64,000 bases of DNA from contig CAKPKR010000003.1 in NCBI GenBank assembly GCA_934167465.1, positions 2,992 through 66,991 on the forward strand. Reading direction: 5' to 3'. A model generated the notes under the pieces. The model was not told the DNA's origin, made no database searches, and saw nothing but the letters and a program-made list of their open reading frames with translations. A program made the translations under genes and the position numbers. Shown here in pieces: positions 9,048-62,597 of the stretch. The DNA comes from an uncultured Bacilli bacterium. GTDB taxonomy: Bacteria > Bacillota_I > Bacilli_A > RF39 > UBA660. Numbering within the stretch: position 1 is the stretch's first letter; every line of letters starts with the position of its first letter.

Positions 9048-9917
9048 ATGAAAAAAATGTTAAGAAGCAGAATTTTTTTGGTAATAGTAACATTAATAAT
9101 AGGAATAAGTGGAACATTATATGCAGCAAACTCATATAACGCAAATGCTATTGTTTATAATTCAAGTGATGGAACAAGTAAAAATGTAAATGAAGCTTTG
9201 AATGATTTATATACAAAAAGTAAAAAAGAATATTATGTAAATGGATTAGTAGCATATTATAATCCTGTAACAGGATCAAAATGTAAAGTAAGCGAAGCAA
9301 CATCAAATACAAATAGCAAAGGAACATATACAGAGGTAAAAACAGGATGTATGAAATGGTATATTTTTAAAGAAGATTTTGATAATTATACAATGATATT
9401 AGATCACAATACTACTGCAAGAATAAAATGGAATGATAATAATGTAAATGTATCTTATGAAAATAGCAATATTAAAGCCGAAGTAGATAAGTTAGTAAGT
9501 GTCTCAAAATGGAAAAATACTCCTAGATTAATTACAGCAAATGAATTATCCAAAATAACAAATAATTCAACTTTTAATGATTCAGTTGAAAATAATTGGT
9601 ATTTTTTTGATAGTAATAGTCATAATCAAACTGCTACATCAAAGGGTGCAAGCACTTATTCTTGGCTATATGATTATACATCTTCTTGTTCAAGTTGGGG
9701 ATGTAATGTGGAAGATAATAATTATTATACTGGCGTTGGTACATCAGGAACTGGTTATTTTTATGGATATTGGACATCAACAACAAGGGGAACAGCTGGT
9801 GCTGGATATGCTGTTTGGGATGTTTTCCATCATGGTAATTTAGATGGTGGTGATGCTAATTATGATGCACGTGGTATTCGCCCAGTTATAACAATTTCAA
9901 AAACAATATTAAAATAA
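9048..9917 (+). CDS. variable secreted protein family member A0 (conserved N-terminal module plus DUF1566/Lcl-C-like C-terminus)
   Basis: The N-terminal 60 aa are shared with the genes at 32462, 33087, 33715, 41108, 42438, 52511 and 61881. The C-terminus, YWTSTT...AVWDVFHHGNL...ARGIRPV, fits the DUF1566 / FGE-fold ending. Confidence 0.6.
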   Translation: MKKMLRSRIFLVIVTLIIGISGTLYAANSYNANAIVYNSSDGTSKNVNEALNDLYTKSKKEYYVNGLVAYYNPVTGSKCKVSEATSNTNSKGTYTEVKTGCMKWYIFKEDFDNYTMILDHNTTARIKWNDNNVNVSYENSNIKAEVDKLVSVSKWKNTPRLITANELSKITNNSTFNDSVENNWYFFDSNSHNQTATSKGASTYSWLYDYTSSCSSWGCNVEDNNYYTGVGTSGTGYFYGYWTSTTRGTAGAGYAVWDVFHHGNLDGGDANYDARGIRPVITISKTILK

Positions 9918-10054
9918 GGAAGTAATTCCTTTTTTTGTATTCTTTTTCTAATAATAGTTATACTAATAAAAAAAGATGTAAATAAAAAAATATTGTCTTG
10001 CAAAAAGTAATACAATTAATGTATAATTGAATAGAAAGGTAGTAGTGAAGTAGT
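9918..10054 (+). promoter_or_regulatory. shared promoter and leader module, copy 2
   Basis: Same module. TTGCAA is at 9998-10003 and TATAAT at 10022-10027. A small AGGAA-gtaa-TTCCT-T7 terminator lies at its 5' end. Confidence 0.55.
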
Positions 10055-11698
10055 ATGAAAAAAGGATTTACATTAATAGAATTATTGGCAGTAATAGTGA
10101 TATTGGCAGTAATAGCATTAATCGCAACACCAATAATATTAAATGTAATAGAAGAATCAAAAAAGGGAGCCGCTGAACAATCAGTAATCGGATATGTAAA
10201 CGGAATAGAGAATAATGTTTTAGTATCAGAATTGGATAATAGTTCTATAGAAGATGGAAGTTACAATATAAATGAAATAGAAGTAGAAGTAAAAGGAAAT
10301 AAACCTGATAGTGGGAATATAACAATAGAAAAAGGAATAGTAGTAGATGCAGTAATGTGTATGAGTGGATATAAAGTAATATATTCAAATAGTAAAGCGG
10401 AAGTCCAAGGAAAATGTGAAGGAAATCTAGTATATAGTGAAGGTATTTTAAATGGAACAGATCCAGTATTAGGTGAAAATATGATACCAGTAACAATAGA
10501 AAAAGATGGAACAGTAAAATATGCAGATATAAATAAGAAATGGTATAGTTATGGAAATAAAGAATGGGCAAATGCAGTAATATTAAATACAAGTAATAGT
10601 TATAATGTAGGAGATATAATACCAGAAAGTGAAATAGAATCATATTTTGTGTGGATACCAAGATATAGATATAAATTATTTAATGTAGATAATACAAGTA
10701 AAGATTCAAAAACATATACAAATTATAAAGATATACCAAGTAAAGCAGAGGAAATAGAAATAGTATTTGAAAATAAAGAAACAAAAATAAGTAACGGAAA
10801 TAAAAATGGTGAATATTTAATGCATCCAGCTTTTACATCATTTGAAAGTAATGGAATGTGGGTAGGAAAATTTGAAACAGGATATAAAGGAGCAACAACT
10901 ACTTCAACAGCTCAAGTAAACTCAAATGATTCTACAAAAGTAATAGTTAAACCAAACGTTTATAGTTGGAGAAGTATAACAGTAGGAAATATCTTTTTAA
11001 CAAGTTATAATTATAAAAGAGATTTGGATTCACATATGATGAAGAATACCGAATGGGGAGCAGTAGCATATCTTTCACATTCAAAATATGGAATAAATAG
11101 TGAAGTAAGAATAAATAATAATAGTGCACATATAACAGGTTATGCAAAGACTGAACAACCAACTTGTGGTTGGACAAATAGTAATGAAGAATGTAATAAG
11201 TTTGAAAGTACGGCTTTAAATCAAGATGGAACATATACAAAAAGATATAATACCGAAATTGGATATTTAGCAAGTACAACAGGAAATATAACCGGAATCT
11301 ATGATATGAGTGGCGGATCTAATGAATATATGGCAGCCTATATGGCAGGACAACTAGGAAATAGTGGACTAATACCAACCGATTATGATTCAAAATATTT
11401 TAATGTATATAATTCATCAAGTACAGTAACAAGTTATCAATATCGCATCTTAGGAGATGCAACTGGAGAAATGGGACCATTTACAAATTTAAAATCAAGT
11501 GGAAGTGATGGAGACAAAACCTCATATGCATCAAGTTGGTATGCCGACCGTTCGAACTTTGTTGACTCTGGTAGCCCTTGGTTCAACCGAGGCGGCGATT
11601 ACGGCCATGGTGTAGTTGCAGGTCAGTTCAACTTCCTTAGGAGCCCGGGTGGTACTTACAGTTACGTTGGCTTCCGCCTAGTTTTAACACCTCAATAA
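10055..11698 (+). CDS. type IV prepilin-like N-terminus fused to an FGE-sulfatase/DUF1566-like domain protein (paralog B1)
   Basis: MKKGFTLIELLAVIVIL is a class III prepilin signal: G then F, with E at +5. The middle and C-terminal parts, TEWGAVAYL, GIYDMSGGSNEY, RGG...VGFRLV, resemble the FGE-sulfatase fold. Confidence 0.6.
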   Translation: MKKGFTLIELLAVIVILAVIALIATPIILNVIEESKKGAAEQSVIGYVNGIENNVLVSELDNSSIEDGSYNINEIEVEVKGNKPDSGNITIEKGIVVDAVMCMSGYKVIYSNSKAEVQGKCEGNLVYSEGILNGTDPVLGENMIPVTIEKDGTVKYADINKKWYSYGNKEWANAVILNTSNSYNVGDIIPESEIESYFVWIPRYRYKLFNVDNTSKDSKTYTNYKDIPSKAEEIEIVFENKETKISNGNKNGEYLMHPAFTSFESNGMWVGKFETGYKGATTTSTAQVNSNDSTKVIVKPNVYSWRSITVGNIFLTSYNYKRDLDSHMMKNTEWGAVAYLSHSKYGINSEVRINNNSAHITGYAKTEQPTCGWTNSNEECNKFESTALNQDGTYTKRYNTEIGYLASTTGNITGIYDMSGGSNEYMAAYMAGQLGNSGLIPTDYDSKYFNVYNSSSTVTSYQYRILGDATGEMGPFTNLKSSGSDGDKTSYASSWYADRSNFVDSGSPWFNRGGDYGHGVVAGQFNFLRSPGGTYSYVGFRLVLTPQ

Positions 11699-11730
11699 AA
11701 ATAATGTTTAAACATTGTTTTTTTCTATAA
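11699..11730 (+). terminator. rho-independent terminator
   Basis: AATGTTTAAACATT is followed by T7. Confidence 0.55.
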
Positions 11731-11889
11731 ATTTAAAAATTATCAACATTTATTTTTAAATTATATTTAATAAATTTGTCGAAATTTATATGTTAAAAAG
11801 TGAATGAAAAAAAGCAAAAATGTAGTAAAATATAAAGCGATATATTTAATTGGTGTTGGTGCATTCCTCCATTATGAGGAGGTGGTATT

Positions 11890-11967
11890 ATGTCTAAAAG
11901 AGAAATTTCCTTTTTCATTATAATACTTCTATTATTTTTTATAATAATTACTTTATTATATAGATAA
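11890..11967 (+). CDS. 25-aa hydrophobic peptide MSKREISFFIIILLLFFIIITLLYR (candidate type I toxin)
   Basis: A strong Shine-Dalgarno sequence, GGAGGTGG, lies inside a CCTCC...GGAGG hairpin. The ORF is conserved in three copies. Confidence 0.5.
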   Translation: MSKREISFFIIILLLFFIIITLLYR

Positions 11968-12082
11968 TAAAATAAGCACTATCACAGGGGGTAGTGCTTT
12001 CTAAATACAATTTGGAATGTATCTAACTCTATCAACAATTAGATATATCCTTTTTTTATTGTATGAGTAATAACTCATCTAT
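11968..12082 (-). ncRNA. predicted antisense sRNA (candidate antitoxin)
   Basis: A minus-strand promoter, TTGAAA-17-TAATAT, is at 12115-12087. The transcript would terminate at the hairpin AGCACTATC...GTAGTGCT plus a T-run, reading in the minus orientation. Confidence 0.4.
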
Positions 12083-12220
12083 ATACATATTAACATTTTT
12101 AAAATATTTTTTCAATAATATTTTAAAATAATTTATAAATGAAATTTTTTATAATTTAATAAGAAATATTGATATATGTTTTTCATCCATTTTATGGTAA
12201 AATAATAATTGGTGGTAAGA

Positions 12221-22914: not shown

Positions 22915-23045
22915 ATAATACTTTTTTTTGTCGGAATTTGTATGTTAAAAAATGGATAAACAAAAACTAAAATGTAGTAGAATATAAAGCGATATATTTA
23001 ATTGGTGTTAGTGCATTCCTTCTAGAATAAGAAGGCGGTGATATT

Positions 23046-23123
23046 ATGACAAAAAGAGAAATATCTTTATTTTTAATAATAATTCTATTATTTGTTATAA
23101 TTTTTATTTTATTATATAAATAA
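23046..23123 (+). CDS. 25-aa hydrophobic peptide MTKREISLFLIIILLFVIIFILLYK (candidate type I toxin)
   Basis: The Shine-Dalgarno sequence AGAAGGCGGTG is sequestered in the hairpin CCTTCT-agaata-AGAAGG. Confidence 0.5.
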   Translation: MTKREISLFLIIILLFVIIFILLYK

Positions 23124-23236
23124 AAAAATGCACTATCACAGGGGGATAGTACTAACTAAAAAACCATTTAGGAATGTATCTAATTTTTAGAACAATTAGA
23201 TATATCCTTTTTTAATTATATGGGCATTACTTATCT
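23122..23236 (-). ncRNA. predicted antisense sRNA (candidate antitoxin)
   Basis: The minus-strand promoter has TTGAAA at 23271-23266, a 17-nt spacer and TATTAT at 23248-23243. A terminator hairpin at 23130-23152 is followed by an A-run on the plus strand. Confidence 0.4.
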
Positions 23237-23336
23237 ATATACATAATAACATTTTAAAAATATTTTTTCAATAATTTTATGTAATTTACGAATATAAACA
23301 AAATAGACTTTTTAACAAAAATTTGATACAATTTTA

Positions 23337-32333: not shown

Positions 32334-32407
32334 AAAAACTCCTTTCTTTAATAAAATAACTCAACTTCATAATTATATACTTTTTTTTAAAATTTGACAA
32401 GTTCACC

Positions 32408-32438
32408 TTGACAAAAACGTCTGGGGGGGGGGTATGAT
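32408..32438 (+). promoter_or_regulatory. poly-G promoter of A1: TTGACA, spacer with G10 at 32423-32432, TATGAT
   Basis: The spacer is 19 nt. The homopolymer lies exactly between the -35 and the -10. Confidence 0.7.
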
Positions 32439-32461
32439 ATTGATAGAAAGTAGGAATCTAG

Positions 32462-32917
32462 ATGAAAAAAGTAATAAAAAATAGAATGTTTTTGGTGATT
32501 ATAATAACTATCATAGTTACTAGTGTAAGTGTATATGCCGCAACCACATATAAAGCAACAGATGTAATATATAAAGCAAGTGATGGAACAAGTATGAATG
32601 TAAATGATGCTTTAAATGAATTATATAATAAAAGTAATAATACAGGATATCCTGATATTAAAATTTATTATGATTCAGGTTGGGGTGGTGGTACTTGTCA
32701 AGCATTTGCTAATTTTAATATACCTAAAGGGTATAATTATTTAGAAGTAATACCACCATATGTTAGTTCTGAACATAGTTCATCTATGGAAGGAAAAATA
32801 ATTTCTCTTAATCAAAAGATTAATGTTTCGGAAAAAGATAGTGTACGAGTAAATGTATATAATGAAGCTACTAGTGGAGCTTGTAGAGCAAATGGTACTA
32901 TTGTACTTAGTCATTAA
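32462..32917 (+). CDS. variable secreted protein family member A1
   Basis: The conserved N-terminus MKKVIKNRMFLVII...YAATTYKATDVIYKASDGTSMNVNDALNELYNK is followed by a variable C-terminus. Confidence 0.65.
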   Translation: MKKVIKNRMFLVIIITIIVTSVSVYAATTYKATDVIYKASDGTSMNVNDALNELYNKSNNTGYPDIKIYYDSGWGGGTCQAFANFNIPKGYNYLEVIPPYVSSEHSSSMEGKIISLNQKINVSEKDSVRVNVYNEATSGACRANGTIVLSH

Positions 32918-32924
32918 TTTTATA

Positions 32925-32975
32925 ACTATATTTCAATTATTATTATTATTATGAATAAAGGTTTTTAGAACCTTT
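32925..32975 (+). terminator. terminator after A1
   Basis: AAAGGTTtttagAACCTTT is followed by a T-run. An (ATT)5 microsatellite lies just upstream. Confidence 0.5.
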
Positions 32976-33032
32976 TTAAATTTTATTATTATTTTTTATA
33001 TAAAGTTTTTTTCACAATTTTTTGAAAATTTC

Positions 33033-33063
33033 TTGACTTTTACGTCTGGGGGGGGGGTATGAT
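33033..33063 (+). promoter_or_regulatory. poly-G promoter of A2: TTGACT, spacer with G10 at 33048-33057, TATGAT
   Basis: The spacer is 19 nt. Confidence 0.7.
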
Positions 33064-33086
33064 ATATCTAGAAAGTAGGAATCTAG

Positions 33087-33551
33087 ATGAAAAAAATAAT
33101 GAAAAGTAGAATATTTTTAGTAATTATAATAACTATCATAGTTGCTAGCGTAAGTGTATATGCCGCAACCACATATAAAGCAACAGATGTAATATATAAA
33201 GCAAGTGATGGAACAAGTATGAATGTAAATGATGCTTTAAATGAATTATATAATAAAAGTAATAATACAGGATATCCTGATATTACAATGTATCTTGATT
33301 CAGGTTATGTAGCAGCAGCTAATTGTGCAACCTCTGTTACTATTGATATACCTGATGGTTATAATTATTTAACTGTAACAACTACTGGTAATGTTTCACA
33401 AACTAAGATAGCAATGGATAGCACATATGTTACTTCTGGAGAGAAATATGATGTTTCAGAGAAAAATAGTATATTAATAAAAATTATACATTATAAAAAT
33501 TCTAGTGGTACGTATTCTAGAGCAATGGGAACTATTGTACTCAGTCATTAA
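33087..33551 (+). CDS. variable secreted protein family member A2
   Basis: A tandem paralog of A1 and A3. Confidence 0.65.
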   Translation: MKKIMKSRIFLVIIITIIVASVSVYAATTYKATDVIYKASDGTSMNVNDALNELYNKSNNTGYPDITMYLDSGYVAAANCATSVTIDIPDGYNYLTVTTTGNVSQTKIAMDSTYVTSGEKYDVSEKNSILIKIIHYKNSSGTYSRAMGTIVLSH

Positions 33552-33661
33552 TTTTTAGCTATATTTCAATTATTATTATTATGAATAAAGGTTTCTAGAA
33601 CCTTTTTAAATTTTATTATTACTTTTTATAAAATTTTTTTTTATAAATTTTTGAAAATTTC

Positions 33662-33691
33662 TTGACTTTTACGTCTGGGGGGGGGTATGAT
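33662..33691 (+). promoter_or_regulatory. poly-G promoter of A3: TTGACT, spacer with G9 at 33677-33685, TATGAT
   Basis: The spacer is 18 nt. Confidence 0.7.
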
Positions 33692-33714
33692 ATATCTAGA
33701 AAGTAGGAATCTAG

Positions 33715-34173
33715 ATGAAAAAAGTAATAAAAAATAGAATGTTTTTGGTGATTATAATAACTATCATAGTTACTAGTGTAAGTGTATATGCCGCAACCAC
33801 ATATAAAGCAACAGATGTAATATATAAAGCAAGTGATGGAACAAGTATGAATGTAAATGATGCTTTAAATGAATTATATAATAAAAGTAATAATACAGGA
33901 TATCCTAATATTACAATGTACCTTGATTCAGGTTATGTAGCAGCAGCTAATTGTTCTGATTCCATTACTATTGATATACCTGATGGGTATAATTATTTAA
34001 CTGTAACAATTAATTATCCATCTATTGATACAATAAAGATGGATGGAACAATTATTACTTCTGGAGAAAAATATAATGTTTCTGAAAAAGAAAAAGTATT
34101 AATAAGTGTATCACAAATAAATACGGGTGGAACTTATGTTAGAGCAAAAGGAACTATTGTTCTTACTCGTTAA
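33715..34173 (+). CDS. variable secreted protein family member A3
   Basis: A tandem paralog. Its C-terminus is GTIVLTR. Confidence 0.65.
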   Translation: MKKVIKNRMFLVIIITIIVTSVSVYAATTYKATDVIYKASDGTSMNVNDALNELYNKSNNTGYPNITMYLDSGYVAAANCSDSITIDIPDGYNYLTVTINYPSIDTIKMDGTIITSGEKYNVSEKEKVLISVSQINTGGTYVRAKGTIVLTR

Positions 34174-40115: not shown

Positions 40116-40574
40116 ATGGAAAAATTTAGCCGTACAATGAGAGGATACGATCCAGAGGAAGTTAATAACTTTTTGGATAAAGTAATTAACCAAGTTGAAA
40201 CAATGGTTAATGAAATGAATGAAAAAGATAAAAAAATTAAAGAATTACAATCTTTTGAAATTGAAAATAAGGCTTTAAAAGAAAAACTTCTTCAATATGA
40301 ACGTATGGAAGGAACACTTAATAAAGCAATAATAATGGCTGAAAAAACAAGTGAGCAAATTAAAGTTAATGCTCATAATGAAGCTGAAACTATTTTAGAA
40401 GATGCCAAAAGAAACGCTAACAGAATTGTTAATGAAGCATTACTTAGAGCCGAAAAAGCTGAAAATGAAGCAAATTTATTAAGAAGAAATACTACTATAT
40501 TTAAAAAAAGAGTAAAAGAAATAGTTGATGCTCAATCTGAAATGGTAGATGAATTAGATAAAATAGAATTATAA
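40116..40574 (+). CDS. divIVA: DivIVA-domain protein
   Basis: FSRTMRGYDPEEVNNFLDKV is the DivIVA N-terminal motif. A coiled coil is present. Confidence 0.75.
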   Translation: MEKFSRTMRGYDPEEVNNFLDKVINQVETMVNEMNEKDKKIKELQSFEIENKALKEKLLQYERMEGTLNKAIIMAEKTSEQIKVNAHNEAETILEDAKRNANRIVNEALLRAEKAENEANLLRRNTTIFKKRVKEIVDAQSEMVDELDKIEL

Positions 40575-40775
40575 TTCTATTTTTTTTTATATATTAGGAA
40601 AGTGCTTCCAAATTTTAAAAAAAAATATATGTTCTATTAAAAAAACTTTCTAAATTTTTGTCAGAATTTGTATGTAAAAAAAAAGATGAAAATAATAAAA
40701 AATATAGTAGAATATAAATCGATATATTTAATTGGTGTTAGTGCATTCCTTCTAGAATAAGAAGGTGGTGATTTT

Positions 40776-40853
40776 ATGACAAAAAGAGAAATATCTTTAT
40801 TCTTAATAATAATTCTATTATTTGTTATAATTTTTACTTTATTATATAAATAA
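40776..40853 (+). CDS. 25-aa hydrophobic peptide MTKREISLFLIIILLFVIIFTLLYK (candidate type I toxin)
   Basis: The Shine-Dalgarno sequence AGAAGGTGGTG lies in the hairpin CCTTCT-agaata-AGAAGG. Confidence 0.5.
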   Translation: MTKREISLFLIIILLFVIIFTLLYK

Positions 40854-40967
40854 AAAAATTGCACTATCACAGGGGGGATAGTGCATTCGCAAAACAAATT
40901 AGGAATGTATCTAACTCTTTAGACAATTAGATATATCCTTTTTTATTGTATGAGCAATAACTCATCT
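40854..40967 (-). ncRNA. predicted antisense sRNA (candidate antitoxin)
   Basis: The minus-strand promoter has TTGAAA at 41002-40997, a 17-nt spacer and TACTAT at 40979-40974. It terminates at the hairpin GCACTATC-acaggggg-GATAGTGC at 40861-40884. Confidence 0.4.
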
Positions 40968-41053
40968 GTATACATAGTAACATTTTAAAAATATTTTTTC
41001 AATAATATTATAAAATAAATTGCAAAATTTTAAAACGCGAACAAAATTTCTGC

Positions 41054-41083
41054 TTGACTTTTACGTCTGGGGGGGGGTATGAT
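41054..41083 (+). promoter_or_regulatory. poly-G promoter of A4: TTGACT, spacer with G9 at 41069-41077, TATGAT
   Basis: The spacer is 18 nt. The conserved upstream box is ACGCGAACAAAATTTCTGC. Confidence 0.7.
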
Positions 41084-41107
41084 AGTATTGGAAAGTAGGA
41101 ATTTATA

Positions 41108-41992
41108 ATGAAAAAAATAATGAAAAGCAGAATATTTTTAGTAATAATTACAATGATTATATGTATAAGTGGAACTTTATATGCAGCGGTCACATATAAA
41201 GCAACAGATGTAGTATATAATGCCAATGATGGAACAAGTAAAAATGTAAGTGAGGCTTTAAATGAATTGTATGAAAATTGTTCTATTACAAAAATATATC
41301 CAAAAGTAACAATAACTACAGAAGCAGATACTGTTATAGGCCAGACAGTAATTGCAACATTAATCAAAGATAAAGATGGAAATTCTCCTAAAGAAGAATA
41401 TGTAGTGAAGGGTACATTAACTAATAGTACAACTTTAGTGTTAAAAAAAATAGGAACTTATAAAATTACAGCAAGTTCTTCTGATGGATTAGAAAATTAT
41501 AGCGATGAAATAACTGTTCAATACGATAATGTATATAATATTAATTATACTGTAAAAAAATATCTTTTTAATAATAGTGATGTAACTGCAGTAACTGGAG
41601 GTTGGGGAGTGATGTGGGAGGCATCTGGTGGTACACCTGGAGCTTCAACGTCTGGTGGTACTGTTAATTCGACATTGTATTTAACTTCTGGATCATCGGG
41701 TAAAAAAGATATGTATGCGAAAAATTCAATTGATTTAACAGGATGGAAAAGAATTGTTATAGTATGTACATATTATAATAATTTAAATAATGGATGGGCA
41801 GGACTTCATTTATATCAACCTGGAGGTTATTGGAGTAAAGATGCTAAATTAGTTGTTGGAGATTTAGGAGCTTTTTCAGTTGGAACATTTACTTATGATA
41901 TTTCTAGTTCTAAATACCAAAAAGAAGTTAGATTTGCATTATTAGCGGCTAGAGTTGAATGGAAAATATCTAAAATATATTTAGAAAAATAA
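41108..41992 (+). CDS. variable secreted protein family member A4 (294 aa)
   Basis: The family N-terminus is followed by a long unique C-terminal region. Confidence 0.65.
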   Translation: MKKIMKSRIFLVIITMIICISGTLYAAVTYKATDVVYNANDGTSKNVSEALNELYENCSITKIYPKVTITTEADTVIGQTVIATLIKDKDGNSPKEEYVVKGTLTNSTTLVLKKIGTYKITASSSDGLENYSDEITVQYDNVYNINYTVKKYLFNNSDVTAVTGGWGVMWEASGGTPGASTSGGTVNSTLYLTSGSSGKKDMYAKNSIDLTGWKRIVIVCTYYNNLNNGWAGLHLYQPGGYWSKDAKLVVGDLGAFSVGTFTYDISSSKYQKEVRFALLAARVEWKISKIYLEK

Positions 41993-42384
41993 ATTTAATA
42001 GTAATTGTTTTTTAGATAAAAGAACCATCAATTTCAAAAATAGCAATTCTATTATAATAACTATGACAAATAAGATCAGAAGAATTACAACAAGGACAAA
42101 AAAATTGGTAATTATTACCATTATCATATAAATTTAATAAATCGTTAAAATTAGTACTGCATTTTTAAGAATTTAATATTATCATAACAATGTCGAAAGA
42201 CAAAGGAAGAAAAAGAAGACAAAACAAAAATCGTGGTGTAGTCTTCTTTTTTTATTGTTTTAAGACTCTTTCTGATAAATTTGCACATTATTTTATACTA
42301 TTTAATAAACTTTTACAAAATAATTTGCGAAAACATTGTATATATTAATTCGACAAAATTTACAAATACGAACAAAATTTCTGC

Positions 42385-42414
42385 TTGATTTTTACGCCTG
42401 GGGGGGGGTATAAT
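42385..42414 (+). promoter_or_regulatory. poly-G promoter of A5: TTGATT, spacer with G9 at 42400-42408, TATAAT
   Basis: The spacer is 18 nt. It has the same upstream box as A4 and A7. Confidence 0.7.
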
Positions 42415-42437
42415 CTAAGTAGGATAGGTGTTTATAG

Positions 42438-42926
42438 ATGAAAAAAATAATAAAAAGCAGAATATTTTTAGTAATAATTACAATGATTATATGTATAAGT
42501 GGAACATTATATGCCGCATCAACATACAAAGCAAGTGATGTAGTATATAACGCAAGTGATGGTACATCAACCAATGTTGAAAGTGCTTTAAATGATTTAT
42601 ATAATAAAACAAAAGAATATAGTAATAATTTTTTTCCATTTAATGTAAATTATGTATATAATAATTATATTGGTTCAACAAATAAAATAACATTTACTAC
42701 TACAATAGAAACAGGAAATATAGATATAACAAAATATAAAATAGTTGGTGGAACAACAAGAGTAGAACCATGGCTAAATACTCAAGGAAAATATATTGAT
42801 ACAACAAGTTCAATAATTAGTTGCAAAGAAGGTATTACGACTATAGAAATAACAGTAACAATTGATGCGGCATCTAGTCTAGCAGGACCCGTTAACTATA
42901 GCGGTGCAATATATAGAATTGAATAA
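42438..42926 (+). CDS. variable secreted protein family member A5 (162 aa)
   Basis: The family N-terminus is present. Confidence 0.65.
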   Translation: MKKIIKSRIFLVIITMIICISGTLYAASTYKASDVVYNASDGTSTNVESALNDLYNKTKEYSNNFFPFNVNYVYNNYIGSTNKITFTTTIETGNIDITKYKIVGGTTRVEPWLNTQGKYIDTTSSIISCKEGITTIEITVTIDAASSLAGPVNYSGAIYRIE

Positions 42927-42976
42927 ATTATAATTTTGTTCTTGCAATAGCATAAAATATATTATATAATTGTTTT

Positions 42977-43190
42977 TAGAAAGCAAGTGCGAAAGACGAG
43001 ATTTATTTAATTATTTAAAAAGAGAGTTCCTGTTTGGTGAAAAGGAATAAATAAACTTAAATCTAGATCACTTTCAAGTTGTGTTTTATGGATAAGATAA
43101 AAACGGTAACGCGTTATAGTTTTGAGTATAAATTAAGGTGGTACCACGTAAATCACGTCCTTATAATTAGGATGTGTTTTTTTAAATTTT
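42977..43190 (+). promoter_or_regulatory. T-box riboswitch leader (Ile) of ileS
   Basis: A TTGCAA-17-TATAAT promoter is at 42942-42970. A stem I AGAGAG element is present. The T-box AATTAAGGTGGTACCACG is at 43131-43148. A terminator is followed by T7. Confidence 0.7.
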
Positions 43191-43205
43191 AAAGAGGTGA
43201 AAAAA

Positions 43206-46200
43206 ATGAAAAAATTTGGAGAATTAGAAAAAGGTAAAGTTAGTGAAAATGAATTAAAAATATTAGAACAATTCAAAAAAAATGACACATTTAATAAATC
43301 AATTGAAAATAGAAAAGAAAGTGAAAATTTTGTATTTTATGATGGTCCAGCAACAGCAAATGGGATGCCTGGAATCCATCATATGTTAGCAAAACTTTTA
43401 AAAGACACAGTATGTAAATACAAAACAATGCAAGGATATAGAGTACTTAGAAAAATTGGCTGGGATACTCATGGATTACCAGTAGAAGTACAAGTAGAAA
43501 AAGAACTTGGATTTGAAGGAAAAACAGACATTGAAAAATATGGAATAAAAGAATTCAATCAAAAATGTCGTGAATCTGTTTGGAAAAATGAAGCAGCCTT
43601 CAAAGATTTTACAGAAAAAATGGGACAATTTATTGACTTGGAACATCCTTATATAACATATGATAATAATTATATTGAAACAGAATGGTGGATATTAAAA
43701 GAATTCTTTAATAAAGGATTAATTTATGATGGACTTAAAATATTACCATATTGTCCTAGATGTGGAACAGGATTGGCATCACATGAAGTAGCACAAGGCT
43801 ATAAAGAAATATCAGTAAATACAGTAACAGTTCCTTTTAAATTAAAAGATGAAGATACTTACCTTTTAGTATGGACAACAACACCTTGGACGTTGTTAGC
43901 AAACGTTGCAGCTTGTGTAAATCCAAATGAAGAATATGTAAAATGTAATTCAAAGGGTTATAATTTTATAGTAGCTAAAAAGCTAGCAAACAAAGTACTT
44001 GGTGACGAATACGAAATAGTAGAAACATATAAAGGAAAAGACTTAGAATATAAAGAATATGAACAATTACTTCCAATCTTAAAAGTAAATAAGAAAGCGT
44101 TTTATATAACATGTGCCGACTATGTAACTATGGAAGATGGTACAGGTATTGTTCATATTGCCCCAGCTTTTGGTCAAGATGACTATGAAGTAGGTTTAAA
44201 ATATGATTTACCAGTCTTAAACCCAGTGGACGAACAAGGAAAATATACAAGTGGACCTTGGGAAGGAAGATTTGTATTAGATACTGATTTAGAAATAGAA
44301 ATAATTAAATATTTAGCTTCAAATGACAAACTATTTAAAAAACAAAAAATGGAACATAATTATCCACATTGTTGGAGATGTGGAACACCACTTCTATATT
44401 ATTCAAAACCAAGTTTATATATAAAAGTAACAGATTTTAAAGATAAAATAATTGAAGCTAATAAAAAAGTAAATTGGTATCCAGATTATGTTGGAGAAAA
44501 AAGATTTGGAAATTGGCTTGAAAATATGAATGATTGGGCTATTTCAAGAAATAGATATTGGGGAACACCAATTCCATTATGGAGATGTTCTTGTGGACAT
44601 AATCATATGGTTGGTTCAAGAAAAGAATTAGCAGAATTAGCAATTGAAGATATAACAGAAGAAATAGAATTACATCGACCATATGTAGATGACATTCATA
44701 TCAAATGTAGTGAATGTGGCAAACCAATGACTAGGGTAACAGATGTAATGGATTGTTGGTTTGATTCTGGTTCAATGCCATTTGCTCAATACCATTATCC
44801 ATTTGAAAATAAAGAATTATTTGAATCACAATTCCCAGCTGATTTCATTTGTGAAGGTATTGATCAAACAAGAGGTTGGTTTTATTCATTAATTGTAATA
44901 TCAACTTTTCTAAAAGGATGTGCTCCATATAAAAATGTCTTAGTAAATGATTTAGTATTGGATAAATTTGGTGGTAAAATGCATAAATCAAAAGGTAATT
45001 CAGTATCACCGTTTGCTACAATTGAAAACTATGGTGCTGATGCTACTCGTTGGTATATGTTATCAGCTTCACCAGTATGGACACCACTTAAATTTGATGA
45101 AGATGGAATAAAAGAAGTAATTTCTAAATTTTTCAACACTTTAAAAAATACTTATACTTTCTTTAGTATGTATGCTAATACCGATGAAGTAGATCCAAGA
45201 ACATTTAAAGTTGAATATAATGATTTAGAAGAAATAGATAAATGGTTAATTTCAAAATATAATAAATTAGTTAAAAATGTAACTAATAGTATGGAAGAAT
45301 ATGATTTGAATAAATCAGTTAAATTAATAAGTAATTTTGTTAGTGAAGACTTATCAAATTGGTATATCAGAAGAAACAGAAGAAGATTTTGGTCTAGTGA
45401 GTTAGATACTAGTAAAAAAGCTGTATATCAAACAACATATGAAATATTAATGGGAGTGTGTAAACTAATGGCTCCTATGGCTCCATTTATATCAGAAGAA
45501 ATTTATAACAAATTAACAGATAAATCAGTTCATTTAGCTGATTATCCAAAATGTGATGATTCAAAAATAAATGAATTAATTGAATCTAGAATGGACTTAA
45601 TAAGAGATTTAATTTCTTTAGGTAGAAATGTTAGAGAAGAAACAAAGATAAAAGTTAGACAACCAATTAGTGAAGTACTAATAGATGCTAAAAACGAGGA
45701 ATTAATAAGTGACTTAGTAACTTTAATTGAAGAAGAATTAAATGTTAAAAAGGTTACATTTATTAAAGATGTAAGCAATTATATGGAATTCATGGTTAAA
45801 CCAAACTTTAAAGTGGCTGGACCTATATTTGGACCTAATATAAAAGAATATAGTAGTAAATTAAATGAGCTAAGTATGGATGAAATTGCTAAATTACAAA
45901 ATGGTGAAACTATTAAATTAGATGTTAATAATAATAGTTATGATATAAATAGTGAATTAGTTGATATTAGAGTATCCTCTAAAGAAGGATTTAACGTTGC
46001 TACACTAAATGATAATTTTATTATTCTAGATACAAATTTAACAAAAGACTTAATTTTAGAAGGTATAGCAAGAGAAATGATTTCTAAAGTTCAAAATATC
46101 AGAAAAGAAAATGATTATAATATAATTGATAGAATTAATTTATATTATAAAGGTGATGAAGAAGTAGATGAAGCTGTTAATAAATTTGATGAATTTATTA

Positions 46201-49544: not shown

Positions 49545-49681
49545 TAGTTTTGACTACTTTTTTCTGTATTGTTTTTTTTATAATGTTTATAATAATAAAA
49601 AGATGTAAATAAGAAAATATTGTCTTGCAATACGTAATACGTTTATTATATAATAAGATAGAAAGGTAGTAGTGAAGTAGT
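49545..49681 (+). promoter_or_regulatory. shared promoter and leader module, copy 3
   Basis: A terminator, AGTAGT-tttg-ACTACT-T6, is followed by TTGCAA at 49625-49630, an 18-nt spacer, TATAAT at 49649-49654, and the 5' UTR identical to the copies at 9024 and 10031. Confidence 0.55.
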
Positions 49682-51328
49682 ATGAAAAAACAAGGATTTA
49701 CACTTATTGAGTTGTTAGCAGTTATCGTAATATTAGCTGTGATAGCTTTAATCGCAACACCAATAATCTTAAATGTAATTGAAGATTCAAAAAAGGGAGC
49801 AGCCGAACAATCAGTAATCGGATATATAAATGGAATAGAAAATAGTGTATTAGTATCAGAATTAGATAATAATTCATTAGATGATGGAAGTTATAATATA
49901 AATGAATTAAATGTCGAAGTAAAAGGAAATAAACCAAGTAGTGGTAATGTAACATTAGAAAATGGAATAGTAGTAGATGCTGTAATTTGTATGAATGGAT
50001 ATAGAATAAATTATGCAAATAGTAAAGCTGAAGTCCAAGGAAAATGTGATGAAGCATTAGTATATAGTGAAGGTATTTTAAATGGAACAGATCCCGTATT
50101 AGGTGACAATATGATACCAGTCACAATTGAAAAAGATGGAACAGTAAAGTATGCTGATATAAACAAAAAATGGTATAGTTATAGAAATAAAGAATGGGCA
50201 AATGCAGTAATATTAAATACAAGTAATACTTACAAAGTAGGAGATATAATACCAGAAAGTGAAATTGAATCATATTTTGTATGGATACCTAGATATAAAT
50301 ATAAATTATTTAATGTAGATAATACAAGTAAAGATTCAAAGACATATACAATATATACAGATGTACCAAGTAAAGCAGAGGAAATAGAAATAATATTTGA
50401 AAATAAAGAAACAAAAGAAAGTATAGGAACAAAGAATGGAGAATATTTAACCCACCCAGCCTTCACATCATTTGAAAGTAATGGAATGTGGGTAGGAAAG
50501 TTTGAAACAGGCTATAAAGGAGCAACTTCAACTACTTCAGCTCAAGTAAATAGTAATGATTTAAGTAAAGTAATAGTTAAACCTAATGTATATAGTTGGC
50601 GAAATATAACTATAAATAATATATTCTTAACAAGTTATAATTATAAAAGAAATTTAGATTCACATATGATGAAGAATACCGAATGGGGAGCAGTAGCATA
50701 CCTATCACATTCAAAATATGGAATTAATAATGATATAAGAATAAATAATAATAGTGCATATATAACAGGATATGCCAAGACAGAACAACCAACATGTGGA
50801 TATACAAATAGCAATGAAAATTGTAATAGATTTGAAAGTACATCATTAAATCAAGATGGGACATATACCAAGAGATATAATACGGAAATAGGCTATTTAG
50901 CTAGTACAACCGGAAATATTACGGGAATCTATGATATGAGTGGTGGGTCACATGAATATGTAGCAGCATATATGGCAGGAAACTTAGGAAGTAGTGGAAT
51001 AACACCAACCGATTATGATTCAAAATACTTTAATGTATATAATGCATCAAGTACACAAACAAGTTATCAATATCGAATTTTAGGAGATGCAACTGGCGAA
51101 ATGGGACCATTTACAAATTTAAAATCAACTGGGAGCAATGGTGTTAAGACAGCATATGTTTCAAGTTGGTACGCTTCCGACGCGAATTTCGTTGACTCTT
51201 CTTACCCTTGGTTCATTCGTGGCATCCATTTCATCGGTGGTGTACTTGCAGGTCAGTTCAACTTCGCTAGGAACACAGGAACTAATAATGGTTATATTGG
51301 TTTCCGTTTAGTTTTAACACCACAATAA
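49682..51328 (+). CDS. type IV prepilin-like N-terminus fused to an FGE-sulfatase/DUF1566-like domain protein (paralog B2)
   Basis: MKKQGFTLIELLAVIVIL is a prepilin signal. The protein is collinear with B1 throughout. The last 150 nt are GC-rich. Confidence 0.6.
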   Translation: MKKQGFTLIELLAVIVILAVIALIATPIILNVIEDSKKGAAEQSVIGYINGIENSVLVSELDNNSLDDGSYNINELNVEVKGNKPSSGNVTLENGIVVDAVICMNGYRINYANSKAEVQGKCDEALVYSEGILNGTDPVLGDNMIPVTIEKDGTVKYADINKKWYSYRNKEWANAVILNTSNTYKVGDIIPESEIESYFVWIPRYKYKLFNVDNTSKDSKTYTIYTDVPSKAEEIEIIFENKETKESIGTKNGEYLTHPAFTSFESNGMWVGKFETGYKGATSTTSAQVNSNDLSKVIVKPNVYSWRNITINNIFLTSYNYKRNLDSHMMKNTEWGAVAYLSHSKYGINNDIRINNNSAYITGYAKTEQPTCGYTNSNENCNRFESTSLNQDGTYTKRYNTEIGYLASTTGNITGIYDMSGGSHEYVAAYMAGNLGSSGITPTDYDSKYFNVYNASSTQTSYQYRILGDATGEMGPFTNLKSTGSNGVKTAYVSSWYASDANFVDSSYPWFIRGIHFIGGVLAGQFNFARNTGTNNGYIGFRLVLTPQ

Positions 51329-51362
51329 AGCAATGTTTAAAAAACATTGTTTTTTTCTAAAA
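51329..51362 (+). terminator. rho-independent terminator
   Basis: AATGTTTAAAAAACATT is followed by T7. Confidence 0.55.
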
Positions 51363-51508
51363 CTACTAATTTTCTTAGAAACAATAAAAAACTACCTTCA
51401 ATTTTAAAAATTGACTAGATTAATTTTAAAAATTGACTTATAAAATAACAAAATTGGTCATTTTACATTATAAAAAATAAATGATATTCTTTCTTCACCG
51501 GAGGAGGA

Positions 51509-52381
51509 ATGCTTATGCAAATAGAAAAAAATACATTCTATACTTGTAAATATGATAGACCATTCAAAGAAATATTTTTAAATGAACAAAATAAACATTT
51601 ATTAAAAGGATTATTAGAAACAATACTAAAAACAGAAATTGATAAAATAGAACTAAAGCCAAGCGAATTAAATAGTAATAATATAAATATAAAAAGAAAA
51701 TATTTAGATGCATTAATATATGTAAAAGGTAAAAAAATAGGAATAGAAGTAAATTCAAATGCTGAAGAAAATTATTTAAGACCAAGAAATGCATCATTTA
51801 TATTTAATATATATTCATCACATACATTAGTAAGTGAAACATATGATGAAAAAACCGATATAATTCAAATTAATTTATCATATAACTTAAAAGATAAAAA
51901 GAATATAAGAATATATAAATTAAGAGATGAAGAAGGAAAAGAATATATTGAAAATTTATATATTTACGAAATAAATATGGATTACTATAGGAAACTATGG
52001 TACAATAAAAAAGAAGAAGTAAAAGAAGCAAAATATCTAGTAATGTTAGATTTAGAAGAAAAAGAATTAAAGGAATTTGCAAAAAACGATAGAGAGGTGA
52101 ATGAATATATGGAAAAATTGGAGAATTTAAATAGTAATCCAGAATTTTACCAATATATGACACACGAAGAAGATGAAAGAAAGATACACAACTCTATGAT
52201 GTATGAAGCAGAGCAAAAAGGTCTAGAAAAAGGTATAGAACAAGGTTTAGAACAAGGAATTGAAGAAGGAAAAAATGCCGAAAAAATAGCTACAGCGACA
52301 AACTTTAAAAATCTTGGCATAGATATTGAAACTATATCAAAAGCAACTGGTCTATCAAAAGAAGAAATAGAAAAATTATAA
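51509..52381 (+). CDS. Rpn/YhgA-family PD-(D/E)XK recombination-promoting nuclease (putative transposase)
   Basis: The N-terminus YDRPFKEIFLNEQNKH...DALIYVKGKKIGIEV is present. The characteristic C-terminal tail has KGLEKGIEQGLEQGIEEG repeats plus IATATNFKNLGIDIETISKATGLSKEEIEKL. Confidence 0.6.
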   Translation: MLMQIEKNTFYTCKYDRPFKEIFLNEQNKHLLKGLLETILKTEIDKIELKPSELNSNNINIKRKYLDALIYVKGKKIGIEVNSNAEENYLRPRNASFIFNIYSSHTLVSETYDEKTDIIQINLSYNLKDKKNIRIYKLRDEEGKEYIENLYIYEINMDYYRKLWYNKKEEVKEAKYLVMLDLEEKELKEFAKNDREVNEYMEKLENLNSNPEFYQYMTHEEDERKIHNSMMYEAEQKGLEKGIEQGLEQGIEEGKNAEKIATATNFKNLGIDIETISKATGLSKEEIEKL

Positions 52382-52455
52382 TAAACTTCATTTTAAATAA
52401 TGAAGTTTTGTATCTATTAATTTGACAAAAATCATAATACGAACAAAAATTCTAC

Positions 52456-52487
52456 TTGACTTTTACGTCTGGGGGGGGGGGTATGAT
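52456..52487 (+). promoter_or_regulatory. poly-G promoter of A6: TTGACT, spacer with G11 at 52471-52481, TATGAT
   Basis: The spacer is 20 nt. This is the longest tract in the window. Confidence 0.7.
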
Positions 52488-52510
52488 AGTAATGGAAAGT
52501 AGGAATCTAG

Positions 52511-53122
52511 ATGAAAAAAGTAATAAAAAGTAGAATATTTTTAGTAATAATTACGATGATTATATGTATAAGCGGAACATTATATGCAGCTAATACATAT
52601 AAAGCATCAGATGTAGTATATAATACCAGTGATGGAACAAGTAAAAATGTAAGTGAAGTCTTAAACGAGTTATATGATAAATCAAATAACAATTCTGATT
52701 TAGAATTAATATATGATGCAATGGTTTCTAAAGGAGTAACACCATCTAGTAAAAAGATAGATGATATTATAATGGCAATCAAAACAAAGATGGGAGTTTC
52801 AACTCATATAGCATCTGTTAGATTTGCAAATAGAGCCACTAATAGTTCTTCATATACAAGGGGTAGAATGTATTTATATGACTCTAGTGGGACAGTACTA
52901 TCATCTAGTTGGGCAGAAGGATCAGGAGAATCAACAATTTATGGTGAGGATGTTAGAGTCAGTTCTGGTACAATTTTATATGCTGGTTTTTCATCAGCAT
53001 CTGATAAAAATACAAGAGGAATATTGCAGCTTGTTGTTGATGGAAATGTGGTAACATCTGTATTTGTTGAAACAAGCAAAGGAACGTCAAATACTAATAA
53101 AATTACAGTTTTGGATTCTTAA
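52511..53122 (+). CDS. variable secreted protein family member A6 (203 aa)
   Basis: The family N-terminus is present. Confidence 0.65.
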   Translation: MKKVIKSRIFLVIITMIICISGTLYAANTYKASDVVYNTSDGTSKNVSEVLNELYDKSNNNSDLELIYDAMVSKGVTPSSKKIDDIIMAIKTKMGVSTHIASVRFANRATNSSSYTRGRMYLYDSSGTVLSSSWAEGSGESTIYGEDVRVSSGTILYAGFSSASDKNTRGILQLVVDGNVVTSVFVETSKGTSNTNKITVLDS

Positions 53123-61383: not shown

Positions 61384-61437
61384 ATTATGAAATTTTTACA
61401 AAATTATCAAGAATTATTTTGTTTTTGTTCTAAATAA

Positions 61438-61790
61438 TATGTCGGAATTCGTATGTAAAAAATTAGATAAGAAAAATTAAAAATATGGTAGAATATTAAT
61501 CGATATATTTAATTGGTGTTAGTGCATTCCTTCTATAATAAGAAGGAGAGGTGGTCGTTATGAAAGAAAGAGAAAAACTCTATTCTTAATAATCTTCCTA
61601 CTATTATTTATAGTAATTATATTACTTTATAAATAAAAAAATGCACTATCACAGGGGGATAGTGCTTTCAAAACTTTTGGAATGTATCTAACTCTGAACA
61701 ATTAGATATATCCTTTTTTATTGTATGAGTAATAACTCATCTATATACATAGTAACATTTTAAAAAAATTTTTCAATAATATTATAAAAT
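61438..61790. repeat. type I toxin-antitoxin-like repeat, copy 4, with a disrupted peptide frame
   Basis: It has the same unit structure. The ATG at 61560 gives only MKEREKLYS before a stop. The LIIFLLLFIVIILLYK tail is in another frame. Confidence 0.65.
61560..61636 (+). pseudogene. frameshifted remnant of the 25-aa peptide gene
   Basis: See the repeat feature above. The hairpins and the antisense promoter, TTGAAA at 61776-61771, are retained. Confidence 0.5.
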
Positions 61791-61827
61791 AAATTGCAAG
61801 AATTTAAAACGCGAACAAAATTTCTGC

Positions 61828-61858
61828 TTGATTTTTACGCCTGGGGGGGGGGTATAAT
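61828..61858 (+). promoter_or_regulatory. poly-G promoter of A7: TTGATT, spacer with G10 at 61843-61852, TATAAT
   Basis: The spacer is 19 nt. It has the same upstream box, ACGCGAACAAAATTTCTGC. Confidence 0.7.
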
Positions 61859-61880
61859 CTAAGTAGGATAGGTGTTATAA

Positions 61881-62597
61881 ATGAAAAAAATAATAAAAAA
61901 TAAAATAATTTTAATAGTAATATTATGTATAATAAGTTGTGGTATAGGAGTATATGCTGCAACAACATATAAAGCAAGTGATATAGTATATAACGCAAGT
62001 GACGGAACAAGTATAAATGTAAATGATGCTTTAAATGATATTTATACAATCAAAACACAAGGTAATGCAACAGAAAATGATATTTTGAATGGAAAAACAG
62101 CTGTCGTAAAAGGAAAAATGATAACTGGTACATTTAAAAATAATTTTACCTTTGAAACAATAGAAAACCCGGTTGGTACATCTATTATGGATTATAATGA
62201 GAAAAGAAAAGATAAATATTTGACTTTTACACTAGGTGAAAGGTTAAGTTACAATGATACTAATTATTCTGATTATATGTGTTATATTTATCCTATAGAT
62301 TTAACTAATGTTTCAACACTCATCTTGTATCAATGGAATTATATATCGATGCATTTTACAGTAGCAATTTCATTATTTGATACTCCATTATATTCTAGGC
62401 AAGAAATAATAGATAATGCATTTGCAACGTGGACATATTCGACATCAGGTAGTAAAAAGGCATCTAATTACAATATTAAAGAAATTGATGTAAGAAATGT
62501 AACTGGTAAGAAGTATATCAATATTGCAGTTGTTAGTAAGAATAATTCTTCTGATGAATATTATATGCTTACTAAAAATATAATATCGTTTAATTAA
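61881..62597 (+). CDS. variable secreted protein family member A7 (238 aa)
   Basis: It is the most diverged family N-terminus: MKKIIKNKIILIVIL...YAATTYKASDIVYNASDGTSINVNDALNDIY. Confidence 0.6.
   Translation: MKKIIKNKIILIVILCIISCGIGVYAATTYKASDIVYNASDGTSINVNDALNDIYTIKTQGNATENDILNGKTAVVKGKMITGTFKNNFTFETIENPVGTSIMDYNEKRKDKYLTFTLGERLSYNDTNYSDYMCYIYPIDLTNVSTLILYQWNYISMHFTVAISLFDTPLYSRQEIIDNAFATWTYSTSGSKKASNYNIKEIDVRNVTGKKYINIAVVSKNNSSDEYYMLTKNIISFN

Follow-up and report, generated by a model that had tools for sequence, protein, structure and literature searches.

An islet of accessory genes between divIVA and ileS

The 64-kb stretch of DNA considered here (the window) contains, between divIVA and ileS, an islet of accessory genes that spans positions 40591-42951. 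The islet comprises a toxin-antitoxin (TA)-like module, TA3 (40655-41027), followed on the + strand by two paralogous genes, A4 (41108-41992, encoding 294 amino acids) and A5 (42438-42926, encoding 162 amino acids), each placed downstream of a sigma-A-type promoter that carries a run of G residues (poly-G tract). Seven such poly-G genes, four copies of the TA-like module, two large pilin-like genes and one Rpn-family gene make up the accessory content of the window, all of it found within six islets that interrupt a backbone of core genes. As argued below, these islets probably belong to a repertoire of contingency genes in an uncultured gut Firmicute, varied by slipped-strand switching together with homologous or illegitimate recombination.

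The limits of the divIVA-ileS islet were set by cross-strain comparison, involving contigs (labelled L001 and so forth) from many human-gut metagenomes, of the Hadza and of other cohorts, that were obtained through exact-protein look-ups. In a sister lineage (L096-L098), the flanks of which are ~90-93% identical to those of the window, homology ends at 40590 and restarts at 42952. In L122-L124, three independent assemblies ~98-99% identical to the window, homology likewise ends at 40590. The ends of the islet coincide with the divIVA terminator and with the promoter and T-box leader of ileS. The T-box leader itself (42978-43165, + strand), a core flank outside the islet, matched RF00230 (69.3 bits, E=2.5e-14) without reaching the gathering score of 93, and was missed by the default Rfam search, probably on account of the extreme AT content.

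An original prediction, made from the letters of the window, had described the accessory units as a cassette-like mobile repertoire clustered at the junctions of housekeeping operons. That the units are accessory and structurally variable is borne out, but the attributes of mobility are not. Neither terminal inverted repeats nor target-site duplications were detected at the ends of the islet (40540-43000), where only AT-rich chance matches were seen, and no gene for a transposase, integrase or other recombinase was found in 40591-42951. Since it lacks both end repeats and a recombinase, the islet was judged not to be a cassette of the integron or transposon type. An IS200-type Y1 transposase gene is present at the divIVA/ileS site only in strains without the islet. 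The placement at housekeeping junctions is true but weak evidence, because most genes of the window are housekeeping genes and nearly all lie on one strand, such that any insert must sit there. It is concluded that the islet is a flexible one, exchanged by recombination, rather than a mobile element.

Between A4 and A5, the minus strand contains an open reading frame (ORF) of 48 residues (41981-42127) that is very hydrophobic, and close by, at ~42214-42250, the + strand contains a strong hairpin accompanied by a T run. These could be the remnant of another small-toxin module or a chance occurrence in AT-rich DNA.

Poly-G tracts in the promoters of the A genes

Tracts of G9-G11 occur seven times in the window, as compared with the 0.42 matches to G7 expected by chance. 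All seven lie in the spacer between the -35 and -10 elements of a promoter composed of TTGAC(T/A) or TTGATT, nine bases, the G tract, and TATGAT or TATAAT. Some 25 nt downstream of each come a ribosome-binding site and the start codon (ATG) of one of the paralogues A1-A7. The A4 promoter (41054-41083, + strand) reads TTGACT, tttacgtct plus G9 (41069-41077) and TATGAT, with a spacer of 18 nt, while the A5 promoter (42385-42414, + strand) reads TTGATT, tttacgcct plus G9 (42400-42408) and TATAAT. In the promoter scan, G9 gave a spacer of 18 nt. A second common upstream module, D6, of 130 nt and of constitutive type, is tract-free, with TTGCAA and TATAAT separated by 18 nt, and is used by A0, a further member of the family, and by the pilin-like genes B1 and B2.

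Polymorphism in tract length was observed directly. Across samples in which the sequence is otherwise >99.7% identical, the A4 tract was G9 or G10, that of A5 G9, G10 or G11, that of A6 G10 or G11, and that of A7 G9 or G10. Poly-G length was unlike that in the window in 15 of 24 observations, as opposed to 12 of 222 for A/T tracts of at least 8 nt in the same contigs. Were such differences sequencing or assembly noise, the tracts would merely be conserved promoter elements. Long G runs are indeed error-prone on the Illumina platform, and several of the contigs are of low coverage (2-8x, judging by contig names). Noise is nonetheless very unlikely to be the explanation, given that the length differences are ~12x commoner than at A/T tracts of similar length, that each locus stays within G9-G11, and that seven tracts at the same promoter position in DNA of ~25% G+C are hard to explain without selection for the tract.

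Because the tracts lie in promoter spacers and vary in length between strains, they indicate putative phase variation of the downstream genes, the most direct mechanism at hand and one that the original prediction had left unstated. As G9 gives an 18-nt spacer, the same as in the non-variable D6 promoter, G9 is taken to be the transcribed ('on') state, with G10-G11 presumably being weaker or off; this effect on expression we infer from spacer length.

One genome per species was also scanned for TTTACGYCTGGGGGGG, which returned mostly chance matches, the only related genome being a rabbit-gut metagenome-assembled genome (MAG) named 'uncultured Bacilli' (Lapin-020 bin16). In contigs L017, L038, L050, L053, L055 and L060 of this MAG, the core TTTACG(T/C)CT-G9-11-TAT was found at least six times. 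There, the core lies inside a short upstream ORF (MEQIYVWGGG...) that precedes other secreted-protein genes, and not in a promoter spacer. At G9, the TGA stop of the short ORF overlaps the ATG of the main gene, suggesting a switch that works through translational coupling. One gene of L050 has a G11 tract within its 5' coding region and is in frame only at G9 or G12.

Structural variation between samples

The strain comparison for which the original prediction had called was run, and related strains were found not to be identical in the placement and content of their cassettes. Presence or absence of islets was seen directly at the divIVA/ileS site. In the sister lineage L096-L098, an unrelated 1.2-kb segment containing a gene for a tandem-repeat protein replaces TA3-A4-A5, while in L122-L124, the islet is replaced by the IS200-type Y1 transposase gene and, after it, the same repeat-protein gene. 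The replacing gene (L122 15250-16723; L123; L124; L096 8527-9651) encodes a protein of ~35-residue tandem repeats (..KIEVRNCLSVLA.GKSTEIEKIIKLLK..), the number of which differs between lineages. A change in copy number was equally observed, in that L122-L124 contain one A gene, the equivalent of A3, between rnj and ffh, where the window contains three.

In a second islet, between yetF and an SDR gene, an indel of 2820 bp (49691-52510) was encountered, with position 49690 being joined to 52511 in the samples of L102/L116, L107, L113, L114 and L115, as well as in L150. Contigs with this junction are without B2, the Rpn-like gene and the poly-G promoter, and A6 is there left behind the D6 promoter. 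The junction corresponds to ATGAAAAAA, common to both start codons and offering 9 bp of identity only.

Exchange of a single cassette was observed between TA3 and A5, where L001 and L129, from two datasets, together reveal the replacement of A4 by a cassette encoding 160 amino acids. L001 runs from divIVA and TA3 into this 160-residue A gene in the place of A4, and in L129, from a different metagenome, A5-ileS is immediately preceded by the 3' portion of this 160-residue gene (97.7% identical). The metagenome that yielded L129 also contains a 99%-identical A4 gene, there followed by unrelated sequence (L127). Four other contigs, L002, L003, L105 and L113, lead into other neighbourhoods, with high-identity breakpoints at ~41250, 41160, 51479 and 61820, respectively. 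The breakpoints of alternative junctions at ~41110, 41160, 41250 and 61820 all fall inside the conserved promoter and N-terminal module, with that of L105 (51479) lying outside. These four junctions, together with the three-copy array that is single elsewhere, support the earlier proposal, in that the repeats appear to provide homology for shuffling; the recombination pathway involved we infer.

Such variation must be set against the view that the A genes are a static paralogous family of old, fixed insertions with inactive repeats, in which case contig differences would reflect assembly chimeras and allelic replacement through recombination in the core flanks. In keeping with that view, the orders sigE-A0-B1-TA1-mutS (kept in seven other contigs), clpC-TA2-trmB and divIVA-TA3-A4-A5-ileS (found in L072, L078, L080, L103 and L067) recur unchanged in many samples, many contigs end inside repeats, and the 160-residue gene of L001 leads to a gene encoding 273 amino acids, in conflict with L129, where the 160-residue gene is followed by A5. 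A static family is nevertheless unlikely. Five independent samples show the 2820-bp indel, its flanks being collinear on either side, three independent assemblies show both the three-versus-one array and the loss of the islet, the exchange of A4 for the 160-residue cassette is backed by two datasets, and island states combine differently in different samples.

The A proteins share an N-terminal module followed by unrelated C-terminal parts

A4 is predicted to contain a signal peptide, presumably cleaved after ..LYA, the conserved N-terminal module of ~30 residues, and a variable C-terminal part, while A5 is an A4 paralogue with another C-terminal domain. Across the eight A proteins, the first ~57 residues are common, comprising a signal peptide that ends in ..(L/V)YA and the motif YKA.DVVYNA.DGTS.NV..ALN.LY, and beyond this region the proteins are unrelated to each other. 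In agreement, a database search with A4 returned 54 proteins, nearly all of which aligned over the first ~20% only. No Pfam or NCBIfam family was matched by the A proteins, a PDB sequence search with A4 and A0 returned nothing useful, and an AlphaFold model of A4, generated with no alignment supplied, was poor (predicted local distance difference test (pLDDT) score of 43), except for a beta-rich region at residues 66-137. On the strength of the signal peptide, the A genes are predicted to encode Sec-secreted proteins that may be located at the cell surface, and their C-terminal domains are probably ligand-binding.

The family extends well beyond the window. The conserved 5' module, i.e., the promoter and the first ~170 nt of coding sequence, is present in at least 20 copies per genome. 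In the OGPT01 metagenome, which contains the same species at ~99% identity, ~24 A-family loci were found, with tracts of mostly G8 to G10 and one of G6. Named by eye from N-terminal sequences, the genes that these single loci adjoin include tuf, rpmE, ackA, ychF, fba/murA, murD/eno and nfo. On the same basis, efp and smc were seen to flank a short pilin-like gene. Two more TA copies adjoining A genes were likewise found in OGPT01. Moreover, the C-terminal domain of A0 shares 45% identity (E=2e-62) with the C-terminal domain of pilin-like proteins encoded by L126. With the A0 domain thus found on pilin-type N-termini, two different N-terminal scaffolds bear the same variable domains.

In a distant relative from another metagenome (L153, 6001-7070), a tandem pair of A-like genes is flanked by gatC and by a gene for a pyruvate:ferredoxin oxidoreductase. 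The motif at the N-termini of this pair, ..VSYDNSTSGLEADNVKDAL.., resembles motifs of phage tail-fibre-like proteins. A phage tail-fibre origin of the A family is unsupported, no match to A5 being obtained by tblastn among 50,697 phage records.

The TA-like module

A repeat census, a four-copy alignment and a profile search revealed the ~365-nt TA-like repeat at 11773, 22925, 40655 and 61436, confirming the three positions previously noted and adding the copy at 22925. As had been stated, the repeat lies directly 5' of a poly-G gene twice (TA3 before A4 and TA4 before A7) and directly 3' of a pilin-like gene once (TA1 after B1).

The organization of TA3 is that of a type I toxin-antitoxin-like module. 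The putative toxin ORF (40776-40853, + strand) encodes 25 amino acids (MTKREISLFLIIILLFVIIFTLLYK), with the corresponding ORF of TA1 encoding MSKREISFFIIILLLFFIIITLLYR. A 25-residue ORF is present in all four copies, where length and character, namely, a charged N-terminus, a hydrophobic core and a terminal LLY(K/R), are conserved. Promoter and hairpin scans placed the Shine-Dalgarno sequence of the TA3 ORF within the 3' arm of a hairpin (40748-40765) and detected a weak promoter at 40686-40713. The arms of this hairpin change in a compensatory manner between TA1 and TA3 (CCTCC/GGAGG against CCTTC/GAAGG). On the minus strand, an antisense (antitoxin) RNA of ~115 nt (40850-40966) is predicted that would be convergent with the toxin mRNA and overlap its 3' end. 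Consensus scans detected both a minus-strand promoter at 41002-40974 (TTGAAA-17-TACTAT, with TG in front) and, with a T run behind it, a terminator at 40885-40860, and three hairpins are kept in the antisense region of all four copies.

No Rfam family was assigned to the module, either at gathering thresholds over the whole window or at E<=1 over 40560-43210, where the sole match was the ileS T-box, and no Pfam or NCBIfam family was assigned to the 25-residue peptide. As such, the module presents type I toxin-antitoxin architecture of no described family, with both toxicity and the antisense RNA being predictions. In TA4, the toxin ORF (61561-61635) is out of frame in the window and in L112, where a run of five A's is found, and intact in L113 and L115, where there are six. 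Either the toxin is inactivated in this copy, or the A run is itself prone to slippage and forms a tract of a second kind.

Pilin-like genes and the Rpn-family gene

B1 and B2 both match PF07963 and TIGR02532, corresponding to the prepilin cleavage/methylation motif, at residues 2-26, with pilins in the PDB matching the N-terminal helix only. In L093 (1058-2553), two ORFs, one of 137 and one of 357 amino acids, stand in place of an unbroken B1, the cause being a frameshift, a nonsense mutation or an error of assembly.

The Rpn/YhgA gene that the original prediction had placed between B2 and A6 (51509-52381) is assigned to the family by profile, with matches to PF12784 (E=1.7e-10, 41.5 bits; cutoff 27.4) and to TIGR01784 ('Rpn family recombination-promoting nuclease/putative transposase'; 53.5 bits, just over the cutoff of 52.1). 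In L117 and L112, near-identical copies of the gene also carry a recorded match to PF27070 (HTH_Rpn_C). More than 900 homologues were found, of which several are ~80% identical and located on short contigs. The putative catalytic region, YLDAL...IGIEVNS, would provide D67 and E79-V-N81, with N as the third residue, as compared with D63, E82 and Q84 in the PD-(D/E)XK core of RpnA (PMC5350276). In L112, a one-base insertion at ~51525, near the 5' end of the gene, leaves only the C-terminal 134 amino acids (the HTH_Rpn_C part) as a called ORF, which could be decay of the toxin part with the antitoxin-like part kept, or an assembly error.

A second Rpn locus was found in the same species, in L126, inside the nusA-infB-rbfA operon between infB and rbfA. 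Here, a D6 promoter, a pilin-like gene, an Rpn-like gene, a poly-G (G10) promoter and a second pilin-like gene follow one another in the order seen in the window, and the segment comprising the Rpn gene and the poly-G promoter is 82% identical to that of the window over 1175 nt. The C-terminal helix of the window protein contains KGLE-KGIE-QGLE-QGIE, and the L126 paralogue lacks 16 residues, or four repeats, exactly at this point. Such hypervariable four-residue repeats in the C-terminal helix are a hallmark of Rpn toxins and their intragenic antitoxins (RpnS), now described as acting in phage defence (PMC10400941). The rpn genes are without inverted repeats or target duplications, have variable ends and are not autonomously mobile (PMC10400941).

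In a model that builds on the original prediction, the shuffling of cassettes would be driven by this gene, such that a PD-(D/E)XK nuclease would cut at or near cassettes, which would then be moved by RecA-independent joining. The presence of an Rpn-like gene between cassette genes at two independent loci in the same order, the 9 bp of identity that bound the indel carrying the gene, as befits a homology-poor event, and the increase in RecA-independent recombination upon overexpression of Rpn in Escherichia coli (PMC5350276) all speak for such a role. Yet the gene is found in one of the six islets of the window, is missing from five samples that still show cassette variation and is frameshifted in L112, while its putative catalytic motif is D..E-V-N where RpnA has E-x-Q (PMC5350276). 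Rpn proteins are, moreover, now regarded as defence toxins, and most breakpoints lie in long homologous modules, as fits ordinary homologous recombination. Shuffling driven by Rpn is thus distinctly improbable. The association of the gene with the cassettes is real, while a causal role in shuffling is unproven and might at most be hypothesized.

A broader proposal is that the unit composed of D6, a pilin-like gene, the Rpn gene, the poly-G promoter and a cassette is a dedicated diversification module. Breaks introduced by the nuclease at cassette borders would seed homology-poor exchange of C-terminal domains between Sec-secreted A-type and type IV pilin scaffolds, with the type I TA module penalizing loss of the islet. 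Were this so, it would represent programmed surface variation of a kind not described in Firmicutes, although the chance of it is held to be slim.

Layout of the window

The window is of ~25% G+C, with a GC skew that is positive throughout, and contains ~65 genes, mostly of housekeeping function and almost all on the + strand. Backbone genes were named by Pfam and NCBIfam annotation, together with the genes called on contigs that match the window. A scan for tRNA genes returned none. The backbone begins with rimM, trmD, rplS, lepB, rpsO, pnp, spoIIGA and sigE. The sigE/mutS islet (8927-12140, + strand) follows, with a D6 module, A0 (9048-9917), a second D6, B1 (10055-11698) and TA1 (11773-12140). 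After mutS, pyk, a GH31 gene and a clpC-like gene, TA2 (22925-23296), defined by repeat alignment and also seen in L082 and L083, stands alone in front of trmB. Next come trmB, a LiaF-like gene, a histidine kinase gene and rnj, the last on the minus strand. Between rnj and ffh lies the tandem array A1-A2-A3 (32399-34173, + strand), with a period of ~626 bp and poly-G tracts at 32423-32432, 33048-33057 and 33677-33685.

Beyond the array, ffh, yebC, a sigma factor gene, glyQS, sepF and divIVA lead to the TA3-A4-A5 islet, which is followed by ileS, tgt and yetF. The yetF/SDR islet (49561-53122, + strand) contains a D6 promoter (TTGCAA-18-TATAAT), B2 (49682-51328), the Rpn-family gene, a poly-G promoter with a G11 tract (52471-52481) and A6 (52511-53122). 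The final portion of the backbone consists of the SDR gene, infC, rplT, fic, parE and then parC, which starts at ~63112. The parE/parC islet (61436-62597, + strand) comprises TA4 (61436-61802), a G10 tract (61843-61852) and A7 (61881-62597), an arrangement confirmed by L112, and an ORF of 134 amino acids lies between this islet and parC.

Of the insertion sites named earlier, those between the clpC-like gene and trmB, divIVA and ileS, and parE and parC stand, but that 'between sigE and sigG' does not, as no sigG follows sigE and the islet lies between sigE and mutS. A second sporulation-type sigma gene, encoding 232 amino acids and with ~68% nucleotide identity to sigE, is found directly downstream of parC in L112 (15651-16349). 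Past the end of the window, this may be the sigma gene that had been expected beside sigE. Ribosomal protein L20 (57184-57714) has a C-terminal extension of ~35 residues that matches Rho_N/HeH (SAP-like) DNA/RNA-binding motifs.

Discussion

In the mechanism proposed for the contingency-gene repertoire, most A genes would be transcribed from a promoter in which the spacer between the -35 and -10 elements includes a G tract, mostly of G9-G11. Slipped-strand mispairing would move this spacer among 18, 19 and 20 nt, with the change in spacer switching or grading the transcription of each A gene independently. At the same time, the conserved 5' module would act as a portable stretch of homology, through which genes are converted, cassettes exchanged and promoters swapped, and unequal crossing-over takes place. 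The outcome would be that the C-terminal cassette at a given site differs by strain and that whole islets are gained, lost or replaced between core flanks. The TA-like modules and the Rpn-family gene travel with the cassettes, most likely as selfish, addictive or defence passengers. That the TA modules stabilize the variable genes, as had been suggested, might be entertained as a hypothesis.

Several points weigh against this assignment. Most of the tracts seen give a spacer above the 17-nt optimum, the assignment of on and off states to particular tract lengths is a guess, and long G runs are liable to be miscalled in Illumina assemblies. In place and content alike, most islets are unchanged between near-identical strains. 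The second junction of L001, as well as L002, L003, L105 and L113, could be assembly chimeras formed through repeats. Finally, L102, from the same sample as L001, begins within the part of A5 that encodes the conserved N-terminus, pointing to a tangled assembly graph.

Phase-variable promoters with a homopolymer tract inside or beside the spacer between the -35 and -10 elements are also known from porA and opc of Neisseria meningitidis and, as a poly-A tract, from vlp of Mycoplasma hyorhinis. In the fim promoters of Bordetella, homopolymer tracts alter transcription, with the C-stretch of fim2, fim3 and fimX likewise being a long homopolymer in the promoter of a surface-protein gene (PMC1891110). 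Common to these systems and to the A genes are length differences of a single base between close strains and the presence of several paralogues, each with its own tract. Here, however, the host is an uncultured spore-forming gut Firmicute rather than a Gram-negative pathogen or mycoplasma, the tracts are poly-G despite a G+C content of ~25%, switching is predicted from sequence, and the family numbers at least 20 copies, scattered as single-gene islets between core genes.

Antigenic families with conserved 5' and variable 3' regions include vsa, vlp and vsp of Mycoplasma, and opa and pilE/pilS of Neisseria. The A genes resemble these in presenting a conserved promoter, signal peptide and N-terminus followed by unrelated C-terminal parts, in having breakpoints in the conserved part, and in the varying number of tandem copies. 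They differ in that no silent (promoterless) donor cassettes or site-specific recombinase were seen here, in that each A copy appears to be expressible alone, and in that a C-terminal domain is also found on type IV pilin-type N-termini.

Type I TA systems with convergent antisense RNAs that overlap at the 3' end include txpA/RatA and bsrG/SR4 of Bacillus subtilis. In Clostridioides difficile, type I TA systems help maintain mobile elements (PMC7699646). The modules of the window are similar in combining a small hydrophobic ORF, a Shine-Dalgarno sequence in a 5' hairpin and a convergent small RNA with its own predicted promoter and terminator, and in being multicopy and tied to accessory DNA. 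Unlike such systems, the peptide is of 25 amino acids only and matches no Rfam, Pfam or NCBIfam family, the modules adjoin single cassette genes rather than being found in prophages, and TA4 is frameshifted. For its part, the Rpn-family gene shares with described Rpn systems (PMC5350276; PMC10400941) the profile matches, the C-terminal four-residue repeats, the absence of inverted repeats and target duplications, and a presence that varies between close strains. It differs in belonging to the PDDEXK_2 branch rather than to PF04754, in having N rather than Q or K at the putative third catalytic position, and in its setting at the two loci, between pilin-like and poly-G cassette genes, which is unreported in the same two studies.

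The islets are a new example of a known strategy of cell-surface variation, and not a new kind of mobile element. To our knowledge, commensal gut Firmicutes have rarely been credited with contingency genes such as those of Neisseria, Campylobacter and the mycoplasmas. The present lineage, obtained for the most part from human gut metagenomes of the Hadza and of other cohorts, appears to devote at least 20 scattered loci to secreted proteins that would be independently switchable and would carry exchangeable binding domains. If so, this would point to strong and fluctuating selection at the cell surface, be it from host immunity (e.g., immunoglobulin A), phages or changing attachment targets. 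The islets would also offer natural markers for strain tracking and would account for the breaks at islet sites in assemblies of this organism. Lastly, they would add an undescribed family of 25-residue type I toxins and a new genomic context for Rpn genes.

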